From a virus, in IMG/VR virus record IMGVR_UViG_3300031088_000759: DNA of 64,000 nucleotides. The stretch is one strand, 5' to 3'. Under the pieces are notes generated by a model. That model saw only the letters and a program-made list of their open reading frames with translations. It had not been told where the DNA came from and did not search any database. How positions within the stretch are numbered: position 1 is the stretch's first letter; each line of letters begins with the position of its first letter. A program made the translations under genes and the position numbers. Below are positions 4,533 to 43,725 of this stretch, in pieces.

Positions 4533-6362
4533 CTATAAAGAAGATTCATACTCAGATGCAGTTAAACATTCTCGAATAGTGTCTTTAATAGATTCCTGAT
4601 CCTCCAGCCAATCATCCTCCCAGATATGAACCAGCTTAATTCCCACTTGTTCACACATAATAGTTTTGAACATTTCAGGGCTGTCAAAACTATTCTTATC
4701 CAAATCATTTATATACCGAGTCTTATCGTGCCAATAAATTCCATTATATTCAAATGCTATATTTAAAGAAGGCACATATATATCTAATTCTTTTGGAGCT
4801 ATAACAGAACGATCATTGCGAATTACTTTGTCTACTCCCATCAAAGATTCTACAAAATCAGCAAGAATTCTTTCCTCAGTAGAGGCAAAACCATTCCAAC
4901 ATTTATGGCAAAGTTTTTTCTTAGCGTTAGGCGAAAGAAAATAAGAATGCCCTTTTTGGCACTTCCACCAAACTTTTAACGAAGACTTGCCCGCAATTTT
5001 AGTAGGATCCAGCTCAATTCCTTCAAGAGCATTCTTCTCATAGTCCCATTGTGCAACAAGCTCTGGTCGAATAGTTGCTAAATCATTTAAACCCGTCAAG
5101 ACTTCTCTGTTAGCACAATAAGGACATCCAACGCCATTTTTTCCAGTTCGAGTTATCAGCACAGTTGCCCAAGAATGTTTAGATTTTTGGCATATCCACC
5201 AAACTCTTTGCTCACTGCTCACACCAAACTTAGTCGGATCAACACCTAAAGCATTGTTCTTCTCATAATCCCATTCCTTTATCAAATCTGGTCGAACAGT
5301 AGCAAGATCGTTAAAACCAGCAAGAATACTCATACCTGAACAGTAAGGACAATTAGTTGGCTTATTTCCAGTTCTTGTATGAATTACTGCTTCCCACTCA
5401 TGCCCTTTTCTACATTTCCAAAAAGCCCTCAATCCTGACCGAGCTGTTAAATCATCAAAAACTAACCCTCTGTTCTTATTCTTCTCATAATCCCACTCGT
5501 TTCTTAACTCAGGATACTTTTCAGCTAAACCATTCTTACACAAAAGACAACCTGATTTAATTCGGGTTTTTATCATAGTTTTTCTCGAATGACCTTTTTC
5601 ACAAATCCACCAAAAACTCTCAGTTGAATACATTGAATAATTTTTTGGATCAAGATCTTTATTTTTCACATAATCCCATTGTTCTAACAAATTACTATGG
5701 GTTGTAGCAAAATCATTCACTCCATTAAGTACTCTACCATAACAAATACCACATCCTTGAATCATAGACCTAACTTTAGGAGACATCATTTTGCTATGTC
5801 CTTCTTCGCAGATCCACCAAACTTTTTTGTTAGAACCATAAACAACTTCAGATGGAAGTTTACCATTGTTTTTCATATAATCCCAAGTTAGAGATTGCTC
5901 AGGAAATTTAGTTTCGAAGTCATTAAAACCTTTTAGAACACGATGACCAGCACAATAAGGACAACGTTTGCCTCTTCTGATGTTCACCGGAGACATTTTC
6001 CATTCATGTCCGCATTCACCAAGCCACCAATAGTTTTTCTCGGTACCAGGCATAACTTGAGAAGGTAGAACACCATTATTCAGAGTAGGATGCCATAACT
6101 CAACAATTTCGGGAAATCGAAACGCTAAATCATTAAAACCAGCAAGAACTTTTTGATTAGAACAATAATGACACCCTGCACCTTTTATTCTTCGGTGAGG
6201 TTCAGTAAGCCAACTATGACCATATTGTTCGCATTTCCACCAGAACTTCTTATTCATACCTTTGGTAACTAAACGAGGATCAATTTCATTCTTCTCATAA
6301 TCCCATTCATTCAAAAGGTGAGGGGAAACAACAGCAATGCTATTTTCAGACAGTTCAATCAA
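4533..6362 (-). CDS. Zinc-ribbon (DUF4379-like) repeat protein with C-terminal PD-(D/E)xK/Vsr-like endonuclease domain; putative free-standing homing endonuclease
   Basis: 7 repeats of the type EWDYEKN...WWxCxxGH...CPYC...GFNDL; C-terminal ELDIYVPSLNIAFEYNGIYWH and LVHIWEDDW; TTG start. Confidence 0.75.
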   Translation of the reverse strand: MIELSENSIAVVSPHLLNEWDYEKNEIDPRLVTKGMNKKFWWKCEQYGHSWLTEPHRRIKGAGCHYCSNQKVLAGFNDLAFRFPEIVELWHPTLNNGVLPSQVMPGTEKNYWWLGECGHEWKMSPVNIRRGKRCPYCAGHRVLKGFNDFETKFPEQSLTWDYMKNNGKLPSEVVYGSNKKVWWICEEGHSKMMSPKVRSMIQGCGICYGRVLNGVNDFATTHSNLLEQWDYVKNKDLDPKNYSMYSTESFWWICEKGHSRKTMIKTRIKSGCLLCKNGLAEKYPELRNEWDYEKNKNRGLVFDDLTARSGLRAFWKCRKGHEWEAVIHTRTGNKPTNCPYCSGMSILAGFNDLATVRPDLIKEWDYEKNNALGVDPTKFGVSSEQRVWWICQKSKHSWATVLITRTGKNGVGCPYCANREVLTGLNDLATIRPELVAQWDYEKNALEGIELDPTKIAGKSSLKVWWKCQKGHSYFLSPNAKKKLCHKCWNGFASTEERILADFVESLMGVDKVIRNDRSVIAPKELDIYVPSLNIAFEYNGIYWHDKTRYINDLDKNSFDSPEMFKTIMCEQVGIKLVHIWEDDWLEDQESIKDTIRECLTASEYESSL

Positions 6363-7730: not shown

Positions 7731-9983
7731 CTATAAATTTTTCTTATACATGGTTCTACTACACTGCCATATCTTATTTATATCTACTGTATCAATATCT
7801 TTATGTTTTCTCAAAAAAGAATTCTGATCCCAGACTTTGCTCTTATAGAAAATTTTAAAGTCTGGTTCAAGCTCTTTTTCAGCTTTAAAATCATTATCTA
7901 AGCATAAAAAATTCATAAAAGAATCTTTTTCAGCAACTATGTCCAGCGTCTCTACCTGAGGAAAAATAAGATTGATTGAATCTAATATCTTTGAGAAAGA
8001 GTCGAACATGTATGAGTCATAGTAAAACTGTTCAAGCTGGAAACCGTTATCTTCTTTAATGGAGAAGAAAGACATTAAATTGTTGTCAAAAAATAACCCC
8101 ATATTATAGTTTTTCAAAGAAATGTTTAATTTTTCTCCGGTGCGCTTCTGAAAATTTTCGATATCTTCAATTTTTAGCTCTCTGATTGAATATGGTTCCA
8201 GAATTCGAGGTTTAGTGGGAGACAAAATTTCTGAAATAGAAGCTTTGATTTTATTTTTTTGTGAATCAGTAGTCCAGTTATACTCCCAAATAGTGATTAA
8301 CTGTATATTTTTATCCTGACATTGTTTCCATTTGTCTTGATGGTAATTTTTTGTTTTACCTGATTTTTCGCTGTGCCAGTATAAGCCGTTAAATTCTATA
8401 GCTATGTTTTTATCCGGTATATAAATGTCAATCTCTTTTGGTGCTATTATATCTCTGTCATTACATTTTATTTCGTGAGAAGAGATTTTGCTAAGATATT
8501 CAAGAATTTCTTGTTCAGCTTTTGAGCTTTTGTTTTTAAAAGCACATTTGCTACATCCTCGTGGCTTTTTGCCTGTTCTTGAGTATATTGCTGCTTGCCA
8601 TTCATGTCCAAGATCACAAATCCACCATGCTTTGTACTGGGATCCATAACTAAATTCAGATATATCTTTATTGTTTCTTGTGTTCCACTCTTTTTCTAAT
8701 TCAGGATTCGTTGTTAAAAGATCATTAAATCCTTTCAAAGTTTTTCTGCCTGTACAATAAGGGCATTTTTCTCCGTGAGAACGAGTATCAGGAGCTGCTT
8801 GCCAAGAATGGTTATTTTCTTTACATCTCCACCAAAATTTAGTTTTAGTTCTTTTGGCAACTGTTGATGGTTTAACCGTGTTCTTATTGTAATCCCATTC
8901 GGATATGATGTCCTTTCGTTGTGAAAAAAGATCGTTAAATCCTTCTAAAACCTTTTGATTAGCGCAATAGGGGCATCCTCTTTTGTAATTAGTTCTTTTC
9001 CTTATTTGAGAATTATAAGAATGCCCCAGAATACATAACCACCAAACTTTTATTGTAGAACCACTAACTATGTTATCAGGAGTTAAAGTATTCTTACTAT
9101 AATCCCACTCTGATGCTATATGGGGATGTGTGGTACTCAGATCGTTGAAGCCCACTTGAACTTTTTTGTTAGAGCAAATTGCACAACCTTTATTCATGAT
9201 TTTAGTATTAAACTCTGTTCTGTAAGAATGATTATTAGAACATTTCCACCATGCTTGATCAAAATTGCGTGGAAAATATTCAGAAGCAGAAATTCCATTT
9301 TTATCTTCATCAAATTCTTTAGCTAATTCAGGATAAACAGTTGCTAAATCATTAAAACCTTTTAAAAATTTAAGATTCGCACAATAAGGACAATTCTTTT
9401 CTTTGAAATTTTTACTAATTCTTTCGCTCCACTCATGACCTAAACCGCATTCCCATAATATAATATTTTTCGTACTGTACAAAATTTTATTTGATGTGAT
9501 TTCGTGGTTTTTTGAAACTTGTTGAGCTATCTTGGGGTATTTCGTTTTTAAATCATTGAACCCCTCTAAAAGTTTTTCACCTGAACAATAGCAACATTTT
9601 GAACCGTTCTGACGATCTTTCACAGTAGCTTTATATTCATGATTTTTATCGCATTGCCAAATCAATATTTTATTGCTCATTGAGGAAACCTCATATGGTT
9701 TTAACTCAGAAGCTTCACTAACCTCATTTGCTAAATCAGGATGCAAAGTTTCTAAATCATTAAAACCTTGTAGAATTTTTCTACCAGAACAGTAAGGACA
9801 ATTGTATTGCCTTAATGTTTTGTGCTTGACCATAGAGCTATAACTATGTTTATATTCTAGACATATCCACCATACTATTTTGCTTGAACCATAAGAATAT
9901 TCTGAAATGTGTTTCGCATTCTTCTCAAAATCCCACTCCTCAATCAAATTAGCATACCAAAGTTCTTCATTCATACAGGCCAC
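7731..9983 (-). CDS. Zinc-ribbon (DUF4379-like) repeat endonuclease, 750 aa, with degenerate C-terminal extension
   Basis: 7 Zn-ribbon repeats; EIDIYIPDKNIAIEFNGLYWHS and LITIWEYNW nuclease segment. Confidence 0.75.
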   Translation of the reverse strand: MACMNEELWYANLIEEWDFEKNAKHISEYSYGSSKIVWWICLEYKHSYSSMVKHKTLRQYNCPYCSGRKILQGFNDLETLHPDLANEVSEASELKPYEVSSMSNKILIWQCDKNHEYKATVKDRQNGSKCCYCSGEKLLEGFNDLKTKYPKIAQQVSKNHEITSNKILYSTKNIILWECGLGHEWSERISKNFKEKNCPYCANLKFLKGFNDLATVYPELAKEFDEDKNGISASEYFPRNFDQAWWKCSNNHSYRTEFNTKIMNKGCAICSNKKVQVGFNDLSTTHPHIASEWDYSKNTLTPDNIVSGSTIKVWWLCILGHSYNSQIRKRTNYKRGCPYCANQKVLEGFNDLFSQRKDIISEWDYNKNTVKPSTVAKRTKTKFWWRCKENNHSWQAAPDTRSHGEKCPYCTGRKTLKGFNDLLTTNPELEKEWNTRNNKDISEFSYGSQYKAWWICDLGHEWQAAIYSRTGKKPRGCSKCAFKNKSSKAEQEILEYLSKISSHEIKCNDRDIIAPKEIDIYIPDKNIAIEFNGLYWHSEKSGKTKNYHQDKWKQCQDKNIQLITIWEYNWTTDSQKNKIKASISEILSPTKPRILEPYSIRELKIEDIENFQKRTGEKLNISLKNYNMGLFFDNNLMSFFSIKEDNGFQLEQFYYDSYMFDSFSKILDSINLIFPQVETLDIVAEKDSFMNFLCLDNDFKAEKELEPDFKIFYKSKVWDQNSFLRKHKDIDTVDINKIWQCSRTMYKKNL

Positions 9984-32590: not shown

Positions 32591-33991
32591 TCAGTTAACA
32601 GCTAAAAAGTTTTTAGGCATTTTTGGAGCTGGTTCGTCATAAACCCATCCTGATTCCCAAACTTTACGACGTTCTTCTTCTATTTTGTTTCTATATATTG
32701 CTACTGAATTAAAATTGTTCTCATAAGAATTTTCTATCATTTTAAAAGGTTTAGCAAAATCCTCTAAATCTCTTGAGCCACTTTCGAGTAAGTATTTGTT
32801 AGACTTTAACTCGTGCCCTAGCACACTACCTCTTTCATATGTTCTTTTAACAGTAACGTTTCTTCTTCCTTTTTTCTCCGTAGCATTGTAACTAGCAGTT
32901 CCACGATCAGCAAGTAAATATTCTTTCAATGCTGAGCCATCTTCTAAAAGCTCAGCCTCTTTATAAGCATTCTCCAAAACTTCATACTCTCTGATTTTTC
33001 TATGCGCATCTTTTACTTTGTCAAGATCGTACTTACTATACCTTTTATTATAACTATTAAATTTTTGAACTTCTTCTAATGAAATATTATCAAAATCCTT
33101 GTTCTCTAGCTTGCTTAGTATAGCACCAGCAGCATCAGCTATTTCTTTGTCATTTTTTACACGCTGTATAGCATTTTCATAACTTTGCTTTGAATCACGA
33201 TACTTATCCATATTTTTTCTGTAATCTTCAACATTATTGATAAACCAAGCAGGTGCTTTTCCATCTTCTATCAAAGATCTTTCGTTTTTAAGATGAGTAT
33301 AGTTCTTATTTTTCTCATAATCAGAATGGTACTTATCAAATTGTTCTTTTGTAATTTTATTGTCAAAAACAAAGTAATTGTATGTTGAATCAAAATCATC
33401 ATCATAATCAGTAACATAATTTGGATGTTCAGAAGTAATCTCATTGTTCAGAGCTAAACAACCATCTTCATGGCTATCATAATCCTCGCAATAGCACTCT
33501 CTGTTTCCACCACCTTGACGTGCTGAAACTATGACTACATATTCTGAATCAGGATGAAAGCTGTCTTTGCTAACATTGTATGGTTCTTCTTTAACTAAAT
33601 CATCTATTTTTTCAAAGAAGGTTCCACGAGGTCTCATAACATATGATGACTCCACGAGATAATCATCAGGTGAAACATCTAAAGGTTCCTCGATTTCTCC
33701 TTTCTCAACCTTGTTCAATAACTCATAATGTTTATTCCAAGCACTGACTAGTTTCTTTCTGTTTTCCTGTGAAATACCCGATAAATCAACGTTAACACCG
33801 GAAAGGTTTTGAGAAGTAGAAGCTTTTTGTTTCTTAACAACTGTTGAAAGATTTTGAGTTTCTTCAAAAGCTTTTTGTGCTTCTTCTCTAGTTTCAAAAT
33901 GCTCGGATTCTGTCAAACCTAATCGACATTGCACCTGTGCTTTACATAAACCTGTTTTTCCAGTGTCTCTATTGAAGTGATATTTCGCCAT
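32591..33991 (-). CDS. HCCH-module protein, cargo unknown
   Basis: MAKYHFNRDTGKTGLCKAQVQCRLGLTESEHFETREEAQKAFE; cargo has ARQGGGNRECYC...HPNYVTDYDDDFDSTY. Confidence 0.82.
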   Translation of the reverse strand: MAKYHFNRDTGKTGLCKAQVQCRLGLTESEHFETREEAQKAFEETQNLSTVVKKQKASTSQNLSGVNVDLSGISQENRKKLVSAWNKHYELLNKVEKGEIEEPLDVSPDDYLVESSYVMRPRGTFFEKIDDLVKEEPYNVSKDSFHPDSEYVVIVSARQGGGNRECYCEDYDSHEDGCLALNNEITSEHPNYVTDYDDDFDSTYNYFVFDNKITKEQFDKYHSDYEKNKNYTHLKNERSLIEDGKAPAWFINNVEDYRKNMDKYRDSKQSYENAIQRVKNDKEIADAAGAILSKLENKDFDNISLEEVQKFNSYNKRYSKYDLDKVKDAHRKIREYEVLENAYKEAELLEDGSALKEYLLADRGTASYNATEKKGRRNVTVKRTYERGSVLGHELKSNKYLLESGSRDLEDFAKPFKMIENSYENNFNSVAIYRNKIEEERRKVWESGWVYDEPAPKMPKNFLAVN

Positions 33992-34089: not shown

Positions 34090-34183
34090 GTTTTAGAAAA
34101 AATTCTTCAAAAAACAGAAATACACCCCGAAAAAGACTGGTATAATCTTTGTTTTTCGAGGTGTATTTCTAAGCCGTTTTCAG
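34090..34183 (-). repeat. Conserved intergenic hairpin element, copy 3
   Basis: 19-bp stem 34116-34134/34152-34170 with one G.U pair on the minus strand, 17-nt loop; flanks gttttagaaaaaattctt and aagccgttttcag. Confidence 0.65.
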
Positions 34184-34320
34184 TTGTTGGATATAGTTAA
34201 TTTTTTATCTAATGCTACAGCTTCTGCTTCATCTTTATTACTATAATGAACGCCAGGAGCATAGCAATCCCAGGTATTCTTACAAAAAACAACTTTATTA
34301 AGATTGTCAATATGGTACAT
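34180..34320 (-). CDS. Stand-alone HCCH module, 46 aa, no cargo (not in ORF track)
   Basis: Hand translation MYHIDNLNKVVFCKNTWDCYAPGVHYSNKDEAEAVALDKKLTISNN; GAGGA SD just upstream. Confidence 0.8.
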   Translation of the reverse strand: MYHIDNLNKVVFCKNTWDCYAPGVHYSNKDEAEAVALDKKLTISNN

Positions 34321-34392
34321 TTTTATCCTCATTTTTCAACTCTACAAGAAATACAACCTTCATCTTATCTAAAACGAAAACTTTATTAAACA

Positions 34393-35334
34393 TTAGACAA
34401 ATTTCAGAAAACTTACACTATCATGCAAACCTTGAAAAGTTTGATAACCACAGTTATTGTATTCTCTCTCTACTACACCTTCAGAAATGTCTTTCTCCAA
34501 CTGATCCCAGAAAGCTTCTGAACCAGTACAACCACCTTGATCTTCACCAATATTAACAATCTTAATATGAGGATATTCCTTTTTCACAAGATCATAAACT
34601 TCTTTATCAATTTTCCCATCCATAGGTGCCCAAGACATTACTACATGTGTTATATCTTTGCCATACTTCTTCAAACTCTTCACAGCATCAAGATTTTCTA
34701 TTCCATCATCCGTCTGAACCTTTCCCCAAGACTTATCATCACTCCCAATAGTCTTCACCCCCTCATCACGCATTGCTTTTACCAGGTACCCTTTGCCTGC
34801 CATCGGATCTAAAACAATAGGATCAGAACCACCTAAATCATCTTTCATCTTTTCTTTAAGATTTTTACTAAACCTTTTTGTTATCTTAGCGAAATACCCA
34901 GCATCTTGACAATAAATATGAACAGTCATGCCTAACATGCTTGCATCATAAGAAAATCTTGGAGGAACTTCATCAGGAATATTCCCATTTGAAAAATCTT
35001 CGACAAATTTCTTCTCTACCTCATTAAAAGAGTTAATTTCACGTCCAAAAGATAAGAATTCAGACATTCTTTCAAAGTCTTCAAAAACTTCCTCTGCTTT
35101 CTTGTTTGGCGAAATAACAATAGGAGACAAGAGACTACTCGTGAAACTTTTCTCAACCTTTTTTACTACTGGAAAAGACTTTGTGTTCATAGAATTTTCA
35201 AAAGCAAGTTGTGCTTCTTCACGAGTTTTAAAATGCTCATGGAAATCAGACTTCGTTGCTTTGCAAGTTTCAGGTGTTTTAGCTTGACACCTTCTTGGTA
35301 CACCATCTCTACTAATATGGTATTTTGCTGTCAT
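34393..35334 (-). CDS. HCCH-module protein with SAM-dependent methyltransferase-like cargo
   Basis: KYHISRDGVPRRCQAKTPETCK...HFKTREEAQLAFE; VLDPMAGKGYL, VMSWAP, IGEDQGGCTG. Confidence 0.65.
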   Translation of the reverse strand: MTAKYHISRDGVPRRCQAKTPETCKATKSDFHEHFKTREEAQLAFENSMNTKSFPVVKKVEKSFTSSLLSPIVISPNKKAEEVFEDFERMSEFLSFGREINSFNEVEKKFVEDFSNGNIPDEVPPRFSYDASMLGMTVHIYCQDAGYFAKITKRFSKNLKEKMKDDLGGSDPIVLDPMAGKGYLVKAMRDEGVKTIGSDDKSWGKVQTDDGIENLDAVKSLKKYGKDITHVVMSWAPMDGKIDKEVYDLVKKEYPHIKIVNIGEDQGGCTGSEAFWDQLEKDISEGVVEREYNNCGYQTFQGLHDSVSFLKFV

Positions 35335-35382: not shown

Positions 35383-36462
35383 TCACGATTCTTTTGTGAA
35401 ATCCTCATAGGAAATCGGTGTTGGTTGCGAACCTTCATTGTCAAAAATGAGAGGTTTTTCTGTGAATACACCCATCTTAGTTAATTGAGCAATGTTTTCA
35501 GCATTTTTTGAACGGTATTTACTTCCAGGTTGTGTAGCTTGTGATTCTATTATAGAAGATGGCAAATACCTTCCACCTAAGCCTTTTCCGTTTGTAGCGT
35601 AATCGTTCAAGCCAGAAGCATATCTTTGACCAGCGCGTTTTACAGATGTTTTAGGGTCTACATCAATAAAAATAGCTTTTATATTGTTGTATCCTCTATG
35701 TTTTATATCTTCTGTCTTTTCTGTAACACTCCATGCTTTGTTCATAGTCATGTCCATAATAATATTAGAACGCTGAGAAACTAACTTTTCAAAAATCTTA
35801 TCTGTGAGGTCTAATGATTCTTCGTGAATAAGTGCTGAAGCTTCCATAGGTGTTAAACCTTTTACTTCTGGGACCATACCTTTTTCGGCCATTATTTCTT
35901 TAATGTCATCAGCACTTAAAGAAACATAATCTTTCTGATCTATTTCAACATAGTTCTTGATAATGGTTGACTTTCCGGCACCTGCTAATCCACCTGAAAA
36001 GATAATTTCACCATTGTTTTTTGCTATGTTCGATTGTACCATGAATTCTTCAATAATTTCTTCTTGCTGTTTTTTGCGTTTATCTGAGTAATTGTAATAC
36101 CCGTAAGAGGCATTAGCATAATTATTCTCATCACTAGGTGGTGCGTTGCGCATTTTTGAAATTGCTTCTGAAACATACTCTTTTCTTTCGGCAAGTTCGA
36201 TACCAGTTAGGGATCGTTTGCTCAATCTTGCTTCTTCAAGCATTCTTTGCTGATGTTCTGCTTTTTCCTCAAAAGTATTATTGTTCTTTTTTACTAATGG
36301 CTTAAAAGTATTGAATGTTTGTTTCAATTCGTATGCTGATTGAGCAGCTTCAATTGTAGAATAGTGCTCTTTTAAATCTTGTGTAGTTGCTTTGCATGTT
36401 TCAGGTGATTTAGCCTGACATTTTCTTGCTACACCATCTTTACTAATGTGGAATTTGCTCAT
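35383..36462 (-). CDS. HCCH-module protein with zeta-toxin-like P-loop kinase cargo
   Basis: KFHISKDGVARKCQAKSPETCK...HYSTIEAAQSAYE; GGLAGAGKST, SADDIKE, IHEES, NIIMDMTM, IFIDVD...RAGQRY, GRYLP. Confidence 0.8.
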   Translation of the reverse strand: MSKFHISKDGVARKCQAKSPETCKATTQDLKEHYSTIEAAQSAYELKQTFNTFKPLVKKNNNTFEEKAEHQQRMLEEARLSKRSLTGIELAERKEYVSEAISKMRNAPPSDENNYANASYGYYNYSDKRKKQQEEIIEEFMVQSNIAKNNGEIIFSGGLAGAGKSTIIKNYVEIDQKDYVSLSADDIKEIMAEKGMVPEVKGLTPMEASALIHEESLDLTDKIFEKLVSQRSNIIMDMTMNKAWSVTEKTEDIKHRGYNNIKAIFIDVDPKTSVKRAGQRYASGLNDYATNGKGLGGRYLPSSIIESQATQPGSKYRSKNAENIAQLTKMGVFTEKPLIFDNEGSQPTPISYEDFTKES

Positions 36463-41454: not shown

Positions 41455-43725
41455 TTAGATAATCTCTTTCACAAAGCGAGTCTTTCCGAAATCCCATAAA
41501 CGAGGCAAATCATTCAACTCAGCTAACTGCTTCTCAGTATAACCCTCCACATATTTAAGCTCCGGGTCATTCCTAAAACGCTTCAACCTGAAACCAAACT
41601 TATGCTTACGCAAGCCTTCATGAACATACCGATAATCAGGCATCAAGATCTTGTCCAAAGTAAAACCAAGGGAATGATACAAACCACCATTAGACACTTG
41701 ATGATCCGCAAAAGTAATAATCTGAGAACACCCCATAGACTTACCCCACTTCTCACCAGCTCTCAACAATTTGCCCATACCACCCACAACAGTCTGAGCT
41801 GTACAATAACGATCAAGATACAACTCATTAACATTCTTACGCCAAATACTTACAGCAAGAATATTCGTCAAATCATCATGATCCACCAAAGCAAAATACT
41901 TAGCACCACCAGTAAAACCCTGAATATGATGCTTATTACAAAAATCTTTCGCATCCTTAGAACTTACCTCTACAACCACAGTATTTCTAGCATAAACTTT
42001 TTTACCTTGAGAAACACCAAGCTTATAGGCTAACATAGATTTCACAATATCTTGCTTATCTCTCCACTCATCCTCCCAAACAGTGATAAGCTGAATGCCC
42101 GCATCATTACAAGCCTTCCACTTATCATAGTGGTAGTTTTTAGGATTACTTGAATTTTTACTCAATTGTTTTTCACTATGCCAATACAGACCATTGTACT
42201 CAATAGCTATCTTTTTCTCAGGAATATAAATGCCAAGCTCTTTAGGAGGAATGATTGATCTACTTCCTCTATGAATAGTTCCCTCATAGATACTACTTAC
42301 AAAATCATACACTTCTTTTTCTCCTTTTGATGAACCTTTACCAAAACCTAAACACTCATGACAGCCTTTATTCTCAATAACGCTTTTCACTGATCTTAAC
42401 CATTTTCCACCGCAAACTTTACAATGCCATAAAAACTTATCTATATTTGATTTTCTAAGTTGATCAAATTCTATATCATTCTCTTTCGAAAATAGTTCAG
42501 GTAAGAATGGATACAAAGTTGTTAAATCATTGTAGCCTTCAAGAATTTCTAAACCAGCCACAAACGGAGAACCACCCTTATTAATTACAACTCTTCCCAC
42601 AGGAGATATCCATTTGCCACCACTAACAGGGCAAATCCAAGAAAAATTCTTTTCTGACTTTCTTGAAACATCAGTTGGTCTTACGGGGAAATTATTTTCA
42701 TAATCCCACAATTTAGCAATTTCTGGTTCTGTAGTTGCTAAATCATTAATTCCTTCAAGAACAGAAGCAGATTTACAAATAGTACAACCTTCCTTATGCT
42801 GACCTTTTATTTGCGCATAGTACTCATGTCCATATTTACAAAAGAACAAAGCATATTTAGTAGTCTTTTCAGCTGAATTTAAAACTTCAAAAGAGTTTTT
42901 AGGAGATATCTTGTGTTTCAAAGCATCACTGTCTTTAACCAATACACCTGGTGGAATGCTATAATTTGCTCTTGCCAACCCTCTTTCGGGAAGAATTAAC
43001 TCATGATTGTATTCTCTTTTTAAACTTGTTGTTCTGACACAAAGTAAGCCTAAGCTTCTATAAATTCGCAAATCATTATTTAATAGATCATTGTGCTCAG
43101 TTCTTTTCAAACCAGCATTCCACGAAAGTATTTTTTGAATAGGAACAGGATTATCATCATGTAATTTAATTTTATATGAAGCTGAATCAACTCTATTGGC
43201 TAATTCATCAATCCAAAAAGCAGGATCAACATATGAAAGCCATTTATCAACAGTCATCATAGTTTTTTGAGCACTTATTTTAGCAGACCCTGCATAACTC
43301 TTACCATCATATATTTTTACTATTTCTCTGTTTTTATCAATTTTTAAAACAGGCTTTGAGTAATCTCTGGGGTTTATTTTATTAAAGATAGATTGAGCAA
43401 CTATTTTAGCATCTGCATCCATTAAATGTTGTTCTGTAATGACTATTAAATTCAGATCGTTTTTCCAAGCAGTTTCTTCAATAATTGACAATGAGTTAAG
43501 CACTCTTCCATTGCGGGACTTCCTTGCCCAGCTATTCGGAACATACCTCAGACAAAACAATTCATCTTTTTCAGAGCGAACAGCATAAGGAAACATTATC
43601 TGTTTATCCATAACAGTATATCTTTTATTGGTTTTTTCAAAAACAAGTCCAACCTTTTTCAGTTCTTTAATCAAGTCATCTGGAAGATCTACCCACCATT
43701 GTTCTTTTGATATGTTCAGTGTCAT
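41455..43725 (-). CDS. Zinc-ribbon endonuclease with N-terminal unknown domain and C-terminal homing-endonuclease-associated (Hef-like) domain
   Basis: About 3 Zn-ribbon units; ELGIYIPEKKIAIEYNGLYWHS; KVYARNTVVVEVSSKDAKDFCNKHHIQG...VVGGMGKLL...ITFADHQVSNGGLYHSLGF. Confidence 0.72.
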   Translation of the reverse strand: MTLNISKEQWWVDLPDDLIKELKKVGLVFEKTNKRYTVMDKQIMFPYAVRSEKDELFCLRYVPNSWARKSRNGRVLNSLSIIEETAWKNDLNLIVITEQHLMDADAKIVAQSIFNKINPRDYSKPVLKIDKNREIVKIYDGKSYAGSAKISAQKTMMTVDKWLSYVDPAFWIDELANRVDSASYKIKLHDDNPVPIQKILSWNAGLKRTEHNDLLNNDLRIYRSLGLLCVRTTSLKREYNHELILPERGLARANYSIPPGVLVKDSDALKHKISPKNSFEVLNSAEKTTKYALFFCKYGHEYYAQIKGQHKEGCTICKSASVLEGINDLATTEPEIAKLWDYENNFPVRPTDVSRKSEKNFSWICPVSGGKWISPVGRVVINKGGSPFVAGLEILEGYNDLTTLYPFLPELFSKENDIEFDQLRKSNIDKFLWHCKVCGGKWLRSVKSVIENKGCHECLGFGKGSSKGEKEVYDFVSSIYEGTIHRGSRSIIPPKELGIYIPEKKIAIEYNGLYWHSEKQLSKNSSNPKNYHYDKWKACNDAGIQLITVWEDEWRDKQDIVKSMLAYKLGVSQGKKVYARNTVVVEVSSKDAKDFCNKHHIQGFTGGAKYFALVDHDDLTNILAVSIWRKNVNELYLDRYCTAQTVVGGMGKLLRAGEKWGKSMGCSQIITFADHQVSNGGLYHSLGFTLDKILMPDYRYVHEGLRKHKFGFRLKRFRNDPELKYVEGYTEKQLAELNDLPRLWDFGKTRFVKEII

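Follow-up and report, generated by a model that had tools for sequence, protein, structure and literature searches.

A predicted 46-codon gene under purifying selection encodes a derived, cargo-free copy of the H-C-C-H module that heads an array of effector-like proteins

Small stand-alone proteins of the WXG100/Lap type are encoded beside the LXG polymorphic toxins of the type VII secretion system. In phages, a capsid-targeting sequence is found on the internal proteins IPI-III and on Alt of T4, and polymorphic toxins of temperate phages are fused to MuF. Lentiviral Vif contains an HCCH zinc motif, with the spacing H-x5-C-x17-18-C-x3-5-H. In this work we compare these systems with a short reading frame lying in a stretch of viral DNA of 64,000 nucleotides (hereafter the window), where 12 genes of the minus strand start with an H-C-C-H module of about 50 residues. 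One of these genes, which we call the mini-gene, encodes the module and nothing else.

The locus resembles the WXG100/Lap systems in that a small, cargo-free paralog or partner of an N-terminal toxin domain sits in the same gene row as proteins with varied C-terminal enzymes. The fold differs, however, since the WXG100/Lap proteins form a helical hairpin while the module consists of a predicted beta-hairpin and one helix with H/C/C/H, and no relation in sequence or fold links the two. No secretion genes were seen in the window. These proteins are the nearest analogy for the role of a cargo-free copy, which by this comparison could be that of a helper or targeting partner. With the tags of phage head cargo, the module shares the use of one strictly N-terminal unit on many toxin-like or counter-defence enzymes per genome. 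A complete phage of 324,925 bp with direct terminal repeats (IMGVR_UViG_3300045988_177154, locus L093) carries the module on 11 genes, and Zeta domains occur in large phage proteins. The tag of T4 is nevertheless a peptide of about 10 residues, whereas the module would be, according to the models, a folded and probably metal-binding domain of about 45; moreover, in the 325-kb phage the module genes lie dispersed over the genome, and the module is known here from genes and predicted models. As for Vif, its ligands follow one another in the same order within a short zinc site, but spacing, fold context and biology are all different, so that the likeness is in name only.

The module belongs to a large family. 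A profile search against 1.84 billion cluster representatives retrieved 5368 proteins at E<=1e-3, 781 of them at E<=1e-10. The best 150 of the 5368 measure between 59 and 478 aa; nearly all of them carry the module at about residues 1-50, and a few have two or three modules. All of the 144 family sequences aligned keep the H, C, C and H. Pfam, NCBIfam and PHROG contain no model for the module, and our literature searches found no description of it. Cargo domains recognized in the window are a Zeta-type kinase, a HAD-IB phosphatase and a Fic domain; those recognized among the 150 representatives include Zeta toxin, ADP-ribosyltransferase, 2H phosphoesterase, T4-type RNA ligase, HD and a GmrSD-type nuclease, and the majority of these proteins have no known domain. 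The stretches that follow the module in its window neighbours are rich in K, S, T, N and P. Outside the window, two IMG/VR proviruses have 2 and 6 module genes, and a 2.1-Mb metagenome-assembled genome labelled 'Clostridiales' (L091) has 16. The Zeta-kinase cargo of the window (35383-36462) shares 36% identity with the C-terminal part of a 1088-aa protein encoded by the Mycobacterium phages Phrappuccino (gp57, L101) and Settecandela, in which the kinase part only is matched; this cargo has a further match to a PHROG that bears the annotation minor head protein.

The replicon that bears the window is a contig of 727,572 bp and 34% GC, made mostly of orphan genes. Within the 64 kb there is no tRNA, ten large ORFs are without a PHROG match, and a search of the phage collection gave no near match to the region. 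Actinobacterial-type genes are present on the replicon (RpfB, a Rip1-like M50 protease and ClpC); for the ClpC-like gene no close genome was found, the best match being 56%. Other contigs with homologs of the 313-aa protein encoded next to the mini-gene measure 345 and 682 kb. Related DNA was found in phyllosphere metagenomes, together with small, unconfirmed word shares in soil and air runs. Three large proteins of the window (4533-6362, 7731-9983 and 41455-43725) carry DUF4379 'treble-clef zinc finger' repeats, two of them with seven repeats each (E ~1e-94 to 1e-96).

Seven module genes follow one another between 31284 and 38414, and the mini-gene is the third of them by coordinate and the fifth by reading order. 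The features of the mini-gene and its surroundings are these, all on the minus strand:

34180-34320, minus: mini-gene of 46 codons plus TGA stop, the module alone (sequence, alignment, orthologs, selection and fold)
34312-34314, minus: codon of H3
34282-34284, minus: codon of C13
34264-34266, minus: codon of C19
34246-34248, minus: codon of H25
34326-34330, minus: Shine-Dalgarno sequence GAGGA, 5 nt ahead of the mini-gene ATG (aligned upstream regions)
34362-34371, minus: -10-like element TAGATAAGAT, a putative promoter element within the conserved upstream spacer of 72 nt
34108-34170, minus: terminator-like hairpin (34116-34170) and T-run (34108-34115) (fold compared with shuffles, orthologous hairpins)
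34393-35334, minus: upstream neighbour, module plus unassigned cargo, 313-aa protein; the anchor for finding orthologous mini-genes
32591-33991, minus: downstream neighbour, module-headed 466-aa protein; starts 188 nt past the mini-gene stop

The reading frame extends from the ATG at 34320 to the TGA at 34182-34180 and encodes the 46-aa protein MYHIDNLNKVVFCKNTWDCYAPGVHYSNKDEAEAVALDKKLTISNN, in which H3, C13, C19 and H25 form exactly the pattern H-x9-C-x5-C-x5-H. A first-pass annotation, made from the letters alone, had proposed a 46-aa copy of the HCCH module at this place, and we could reproduce its frame, its protein, the spacing of the ligands, the helix that follows and the GAGGA. It had further described the gene as hidden, which holds for the ORF track with its 60-aa threshold but not for public gene calls, since the 46-aa gene is called in the assemblies of the 727,572-bp source contig and of a second strain. 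The orthologs described below have AAGGA at the spacing of the GAGGA. A longer form of 50 aa, starting from an in-frame ATG at 34332 (12 nt upstream), was rejected: the orthologs read ATA or AAT at that position, and we therefore take the 46-aa form as the correct gene. A near-identical strain (L002, 96.7% DNA identity) encodes an identical mini-protein with a single synonymous change, while the contigs of four other runs are fragmentary and only one piece, of 308 nt, reaches the 5' part of the mini-gene. Neither TAGATAAGAT nor GNTTAGAAAA is enriched across the window, and we kept neither as a window-wide promoter word.

Behind the stop codon, a hairpin begins after about 10 nt. Its minimum free energy is -36.1 kcal/mol (z -4.3), and 0 of 200 shuffled sequences folded equally well. 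A hairpin with a T-run occupies the matching site in the orthologs, where the letters of the stem differ and the pairing is kept. Rfam has no family for it. The three terminator hairpins (34108-34170 in the window, L096:1181-1260 and L098:1276-1350) share the flank AAACG(G/C)(C/T)TTA(G/A)AAA.

The relationship of the mini-protein to the other modules of the window was studied with a leave-one-out profile, built from the six neighbouring modules without the mini-gene and searched against 1234 six-frame pieces of the window. The mini-gene was matched at E 0.0088 (12.7 bits), ranking 12th of 1234 right behind 11 true modules, and no further piece fell below E 0.2. The other five full-length modules matched at E values from 5.5e-16 to 3.1e-7. 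The orthologous mini-proteins, compared with a profile of 144 family sequences in which they are not included, scored E 4.9e-9 and 1.5e-6. Whether 12, 144 or 150 sequences are aligned, H3, C13, C19 and H25 fall in invariant columns. According to the 144-sequence alignment, the mini-protein spans the module with its whole helix and ends about five residues beyond it, with neither linker nor cargo.

No other module of the array is as short or as diverged as the mini-protein. The Gly of the hairpin turn (139 of 144 in the family) is replaced by Asn, as is the Ala two residues past the first Cys (142/144), and the Glu of the A-[YF]-E motif (137/144) is replaced by Asp; out of the near-invariant residues that are not ligands (turn Gly, Ala, helix Ala and Glu), only the helix Ala is kept. 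The Pro-Phe-Gly that follows the second Cys in the family is replaced too. By these alignments, the mini-protein is a true member of the family, albeit a derived and atypical one. The loss of three near-invariant residues means that it may not bind what ordinary modules bind. Several of the loop substitutions are fixed in the three orthologs (an Asn after the first Cys, Trp-Asp ahead of the second and Ala-Pro behind it), so that its specificity may by now differ from that of ordinary modules. No cargo-bearing protein with a module of this derived type was found in the protein database, IMG/VR or the JGI metagenomes.

When the 46 residues are modelled alone, AlphaFold2 predicts a beta-hairpin, a ligand loop and a helix with a pLDDT of 83, the strands being at 2-4 and 10-12 and the helix at 29-44. 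The model superposes over all 46 residues on the N-termini of cargo-bearing, viral-labelled clusters of the ESM Atlas (TM 0.82-0.83, rmsd 1.2-1.4 A), one of which is a Zeta-toxin cluster; both sides of this comparison are predictions. The module of the Fic neighbour, taken from its Atlas model, also matches viral clusters, one of them Tad2-like. Solved structures gave no convincing fold match: in searches with VIA-align and with Foldseek against the PDB and AFDB, the best scores do not exceed Z 3.2 (N-domain of ribosomal protein L9, Kunitz domains) and the Foldseek E values are above 3, the chance level for 46 residues, and a sequence search of the PDB with the module gave no match. The invariant H/C/C/H pattern suggests that the module is probably a mini-domain with one metal, zinc. 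The charge of the mini-protein, near neutral to acidic, argues against plain binding of nucleic acids. A complex prediction of the mini-protein with the module of a neighbour and zinc scored 0.00, a value that speaks neither for nor against an interaction.

We looked for orthologs of the mini-gene by finding homologs of the upstream 313-aa protein and reading the flanking contigs. In two independent assemblies, a gene of 45 aa lies directly after the ortholog of the 313-aa protein (L096:1043-1180 and L098:1138-1275), the latter being 74% (L096) and 72% (L098) identical to the window protein. Both mini-genes start where the window copy does, stop at almost the same position and keep all four H/C residues. 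In the alignment of the three, 22 of 46 columns are invariant, H3, C13, C19 and H25 among them, and the tails after "EAE" vary. One of the routes used to search for related loci with the 313-aa protein gave no match, and no further orthologs of the derived mini-gene were found in the protein database, IMG/VR or the JGI metagenomes. In the more distant relatives L097 and L100, where the neighbour is about 52% identical, no orthologous mini-gene was found, which indicates that the gene is dispensable or young.

Substitutions between these orthologs follow the pattern of a coding sequence. Using the method of Nei and Gojobori on the first 35 codons, the three pairs gave pS 0.48-0.57, pN 0.10-0.20 and omega 0.13-0.22 (Fisher p from 2e-4 to 6e-3); the test rests on some 35-45 codons because the known lineages are three plus one near-identical strain. 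Changes are most frequent at third codon positions, synonymous sites come close to saturation (dS ~1), and the sense frame alone is open in all four copies of the mini-gene. For the whole mini-gene, the comparison of the window with L096 gives an omega of 0.19, next to 0.16 and 0.46 for the flanking genes in the same pair. The comparison of dN/dS across homologous elements that the first-pass annotation had suggested thus reveals purifying selection, and its proposal of an autonomous unit under selection is borne out by the frame, length and four ligands that the orthologs keep, by these omega values and by the predicted ability to fold alone. It is very likely, from the sequence comparison, that the mini-gene is a real protein-coding gene under selection.

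The DNA around the gene is conserved unequally. Across the three loci, identity amounts to 75-86% in the 72-nt upstream spacer, where the ribosome-binding site and a TAGATAAGAT word are preserved, and to only 55-64% in the 188-nt downstream spacer, so that no coding remains are visible in the latter. Neither a longer ortholog nor downstream remains of a cargo were found at the window, L096 or L098 loci, and no out-of-frame ORF overlapping the stop of the mini-gene was seen. A recent nonsense or frameshift truncation, the outcome named at the outset as speaking against the reading, is at odds with orthologs of equal length and a downstream spacer free of remains. On the aligned loci, the mini-gene is young or lineage-restricted, clearly under selection and not a recent truncation.

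Cargo-free modules also exist elsewhere in the family. P0033 (64 aa) is a complete cargo-free gene, followed after 77 nt by a convergent gene, and P0006 (65 aa) is a cargo-free protein recurring on 6 contigs; a tblastn search of the phage collection with the latter, a stand-alone module, gave no match. P0003 (L102:1606-2292, 228 aa) consists of three tandem modules joined by short linkers, with no other domain, and P0008 (146 aa) has two modules. A different arrangement is that of P0146 (67 aa, L005:6001-6847), which shares 56 nt, read in another frame, with the next ORF, of 232 aa; three independent assemblies (L005, L006 and L007) show the identical overlap. It would be either a split (frameshifted) module-cargo gene or a case of programmed shift. 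Judging from its reading frames, P0146 has the look of a split gene, the pattern of a relic, and the mini-gene does not.

Modules have moved within the array. The conserved 313-aa cargo carries at 35184-35334 in the window a module type different from that of its orthologs (L096:23-181 and L098:114-272). The module of the latter shares 31-32 of 46 residues with the 420-aa gene of the window and only 21-23 of 46 with its own window ortholog, while the distant L097 keeps the window type on its 313-aa protein (30/49). This difference between orthologs implies that modules are exchanged between paralogs by recombination.

Several other explanations for the mini-gene have to be weighed against that of a selected, cargo-free module. 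A chance ORF with a chance H/C pattern could be imagined in an AT-rich genome with many short ORFs, but is ruled out by the conserved alignment of orthologs and the substitution pattern of the codon positions; the match to the leave-one-out profile and a frame that is open in the sense direction only point the same way. That the ORF is instead a decaying relic of a truncated module-plus-cargo gene would agree with its small size and its divergence, both the most extreme in the array, with the existence of such splits in the family (P0146) and with the lack of the mini-gene in more distant relatives. We nonetheless find this very improbable, as three lineages separated by a dS of about 1 keep the start, nearly the same stop, the ligands and an omega of 0.13-0.22, and the stop is followed by a terminator hairpin and by a spacer that is not conserved, with no out-of-frame ORF running over the stop. 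Selection may have acted on what was left by a truncation of long ago; the result would count as a functional gene. Just as little credit goes to a spare cassette for recombination, serving as donor or acceptor for swaps of modules or cargo and whose translation would be irrelevant. Paralogs do exchange modules, as the 313-aa cargo shows for L096 and L098 against the window, but it is the protein that is conserved while synonymous sites approach saturation, the ribosome-binding site is conserved as well, and the derived module type is found on no cargo. For similar reasons the earlier suggestion of an empty acceptor for new cargo is unlikely: the gene has remained without cargo over a dS of about 1, a terminator lies 10-15 nt past its stop, and conservation concerns the protein and not the DNA.

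The order of a short ORF, a strong hairpin with a U-run and a next gene 120 nt later is also that of an attenuator, in which a leader peptide and a terminator would control read-through into the 466-aa gene. This explanation has hardly anything in its favour beyond that order, since the peptide is predicted to be a folded domain with conserved metal ligands and has no regulatory run of codons, no alternative anti-terminator pairing is seen in the fold, and similar hairpins lie behind ordinary long genes of the window. A more serious alternative, which we still consider unlikely, is that of a neofunctionalised mini zinc protein: selected, with derived loops and a new role unrelated to its neighbours, for instance as inhibitor of a host protein. 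The replacement of near-invariant family residues by others that are fixed in three orthologs would be expected of such a protein, as would the low score against the profile of the neighbours and a module type that no cargo-bearing protein has in the databases searched. The ligands, the overall fold and the position inside the tagged array are all kept, however, and other lineages have cargo-free modules of the ordinary type, from which it follows that a cargo-free function does not need derived loops.

We favour, with a probability of roughly 0.6, the explanation of a selected 46-aa gene encoding a derived cargo-free module, the module itself being a self-sufficient binding unit. The mini-gene would then be a genuine, lineage-restricted small gene, predicted to be translated, that encodes a derived copy of the H-C-C-H module and nothing more. 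Purifying selection holds its ligands, its predicted hairpin-plus-helix fold and its reading frame in three diverged lineages, the gene has a ribosome-binding site of its own and a terminator directly behind, and no cargo was lost in recent times. The module would be a self-sufficient binding unit, joined by flexible linkers to varied enzymes, all of which it would bring to a single partner or place. A shared binding or address domain of this kind fits the strictly N-terminal placement, the stretches rich in K, S, T, N and P, the number of copies in one genome and the resemblance of the cargo to toxins. The cargo-free mini-protein would act through the binding surface of the module alone, for which we see about even chances. 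It could then be a small regulator, a competitor, or a helper or adaptor for the tagged enzymes of the array, and that it specifically competes with or assists these tagged neighbours is a tentative idea that we hold with some doubt. A structural filler, another role offered by the first-pass annotation, would be conjecture as well.

The preservation of a cargo-free copy by selection indicates that the module does something by itself, beyond being a passive label. More speculatively, and with little probability, the H-C-C-H module could be an undescribed address domain of giant phages or phage-like elements. It would load enzymes from a shifting repertoire (kinase, Fic, ADP-ribosyltransferase, nucleases, RNA-repair enzymes) into the capsid or some other delivery structure and might be cleaved after A-[YF]-E; the mini-protein would in this case be a dedicated factor for assembly or gate-keeping, occupying or regulating that docking site. 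Indirect hints of a delivery tag are the occurrence of the module in phages and the A-[YF]-E motif at its end. The mini-gene is a useful detail of the larger story of a family of tagged genes and not a new system by itself. That family is large, unnamed and tied to giant phage-like elements with toxin-like enzymes, and the mini-protein, at 5 kDa, is the simplest reagent for finding the function of its module.
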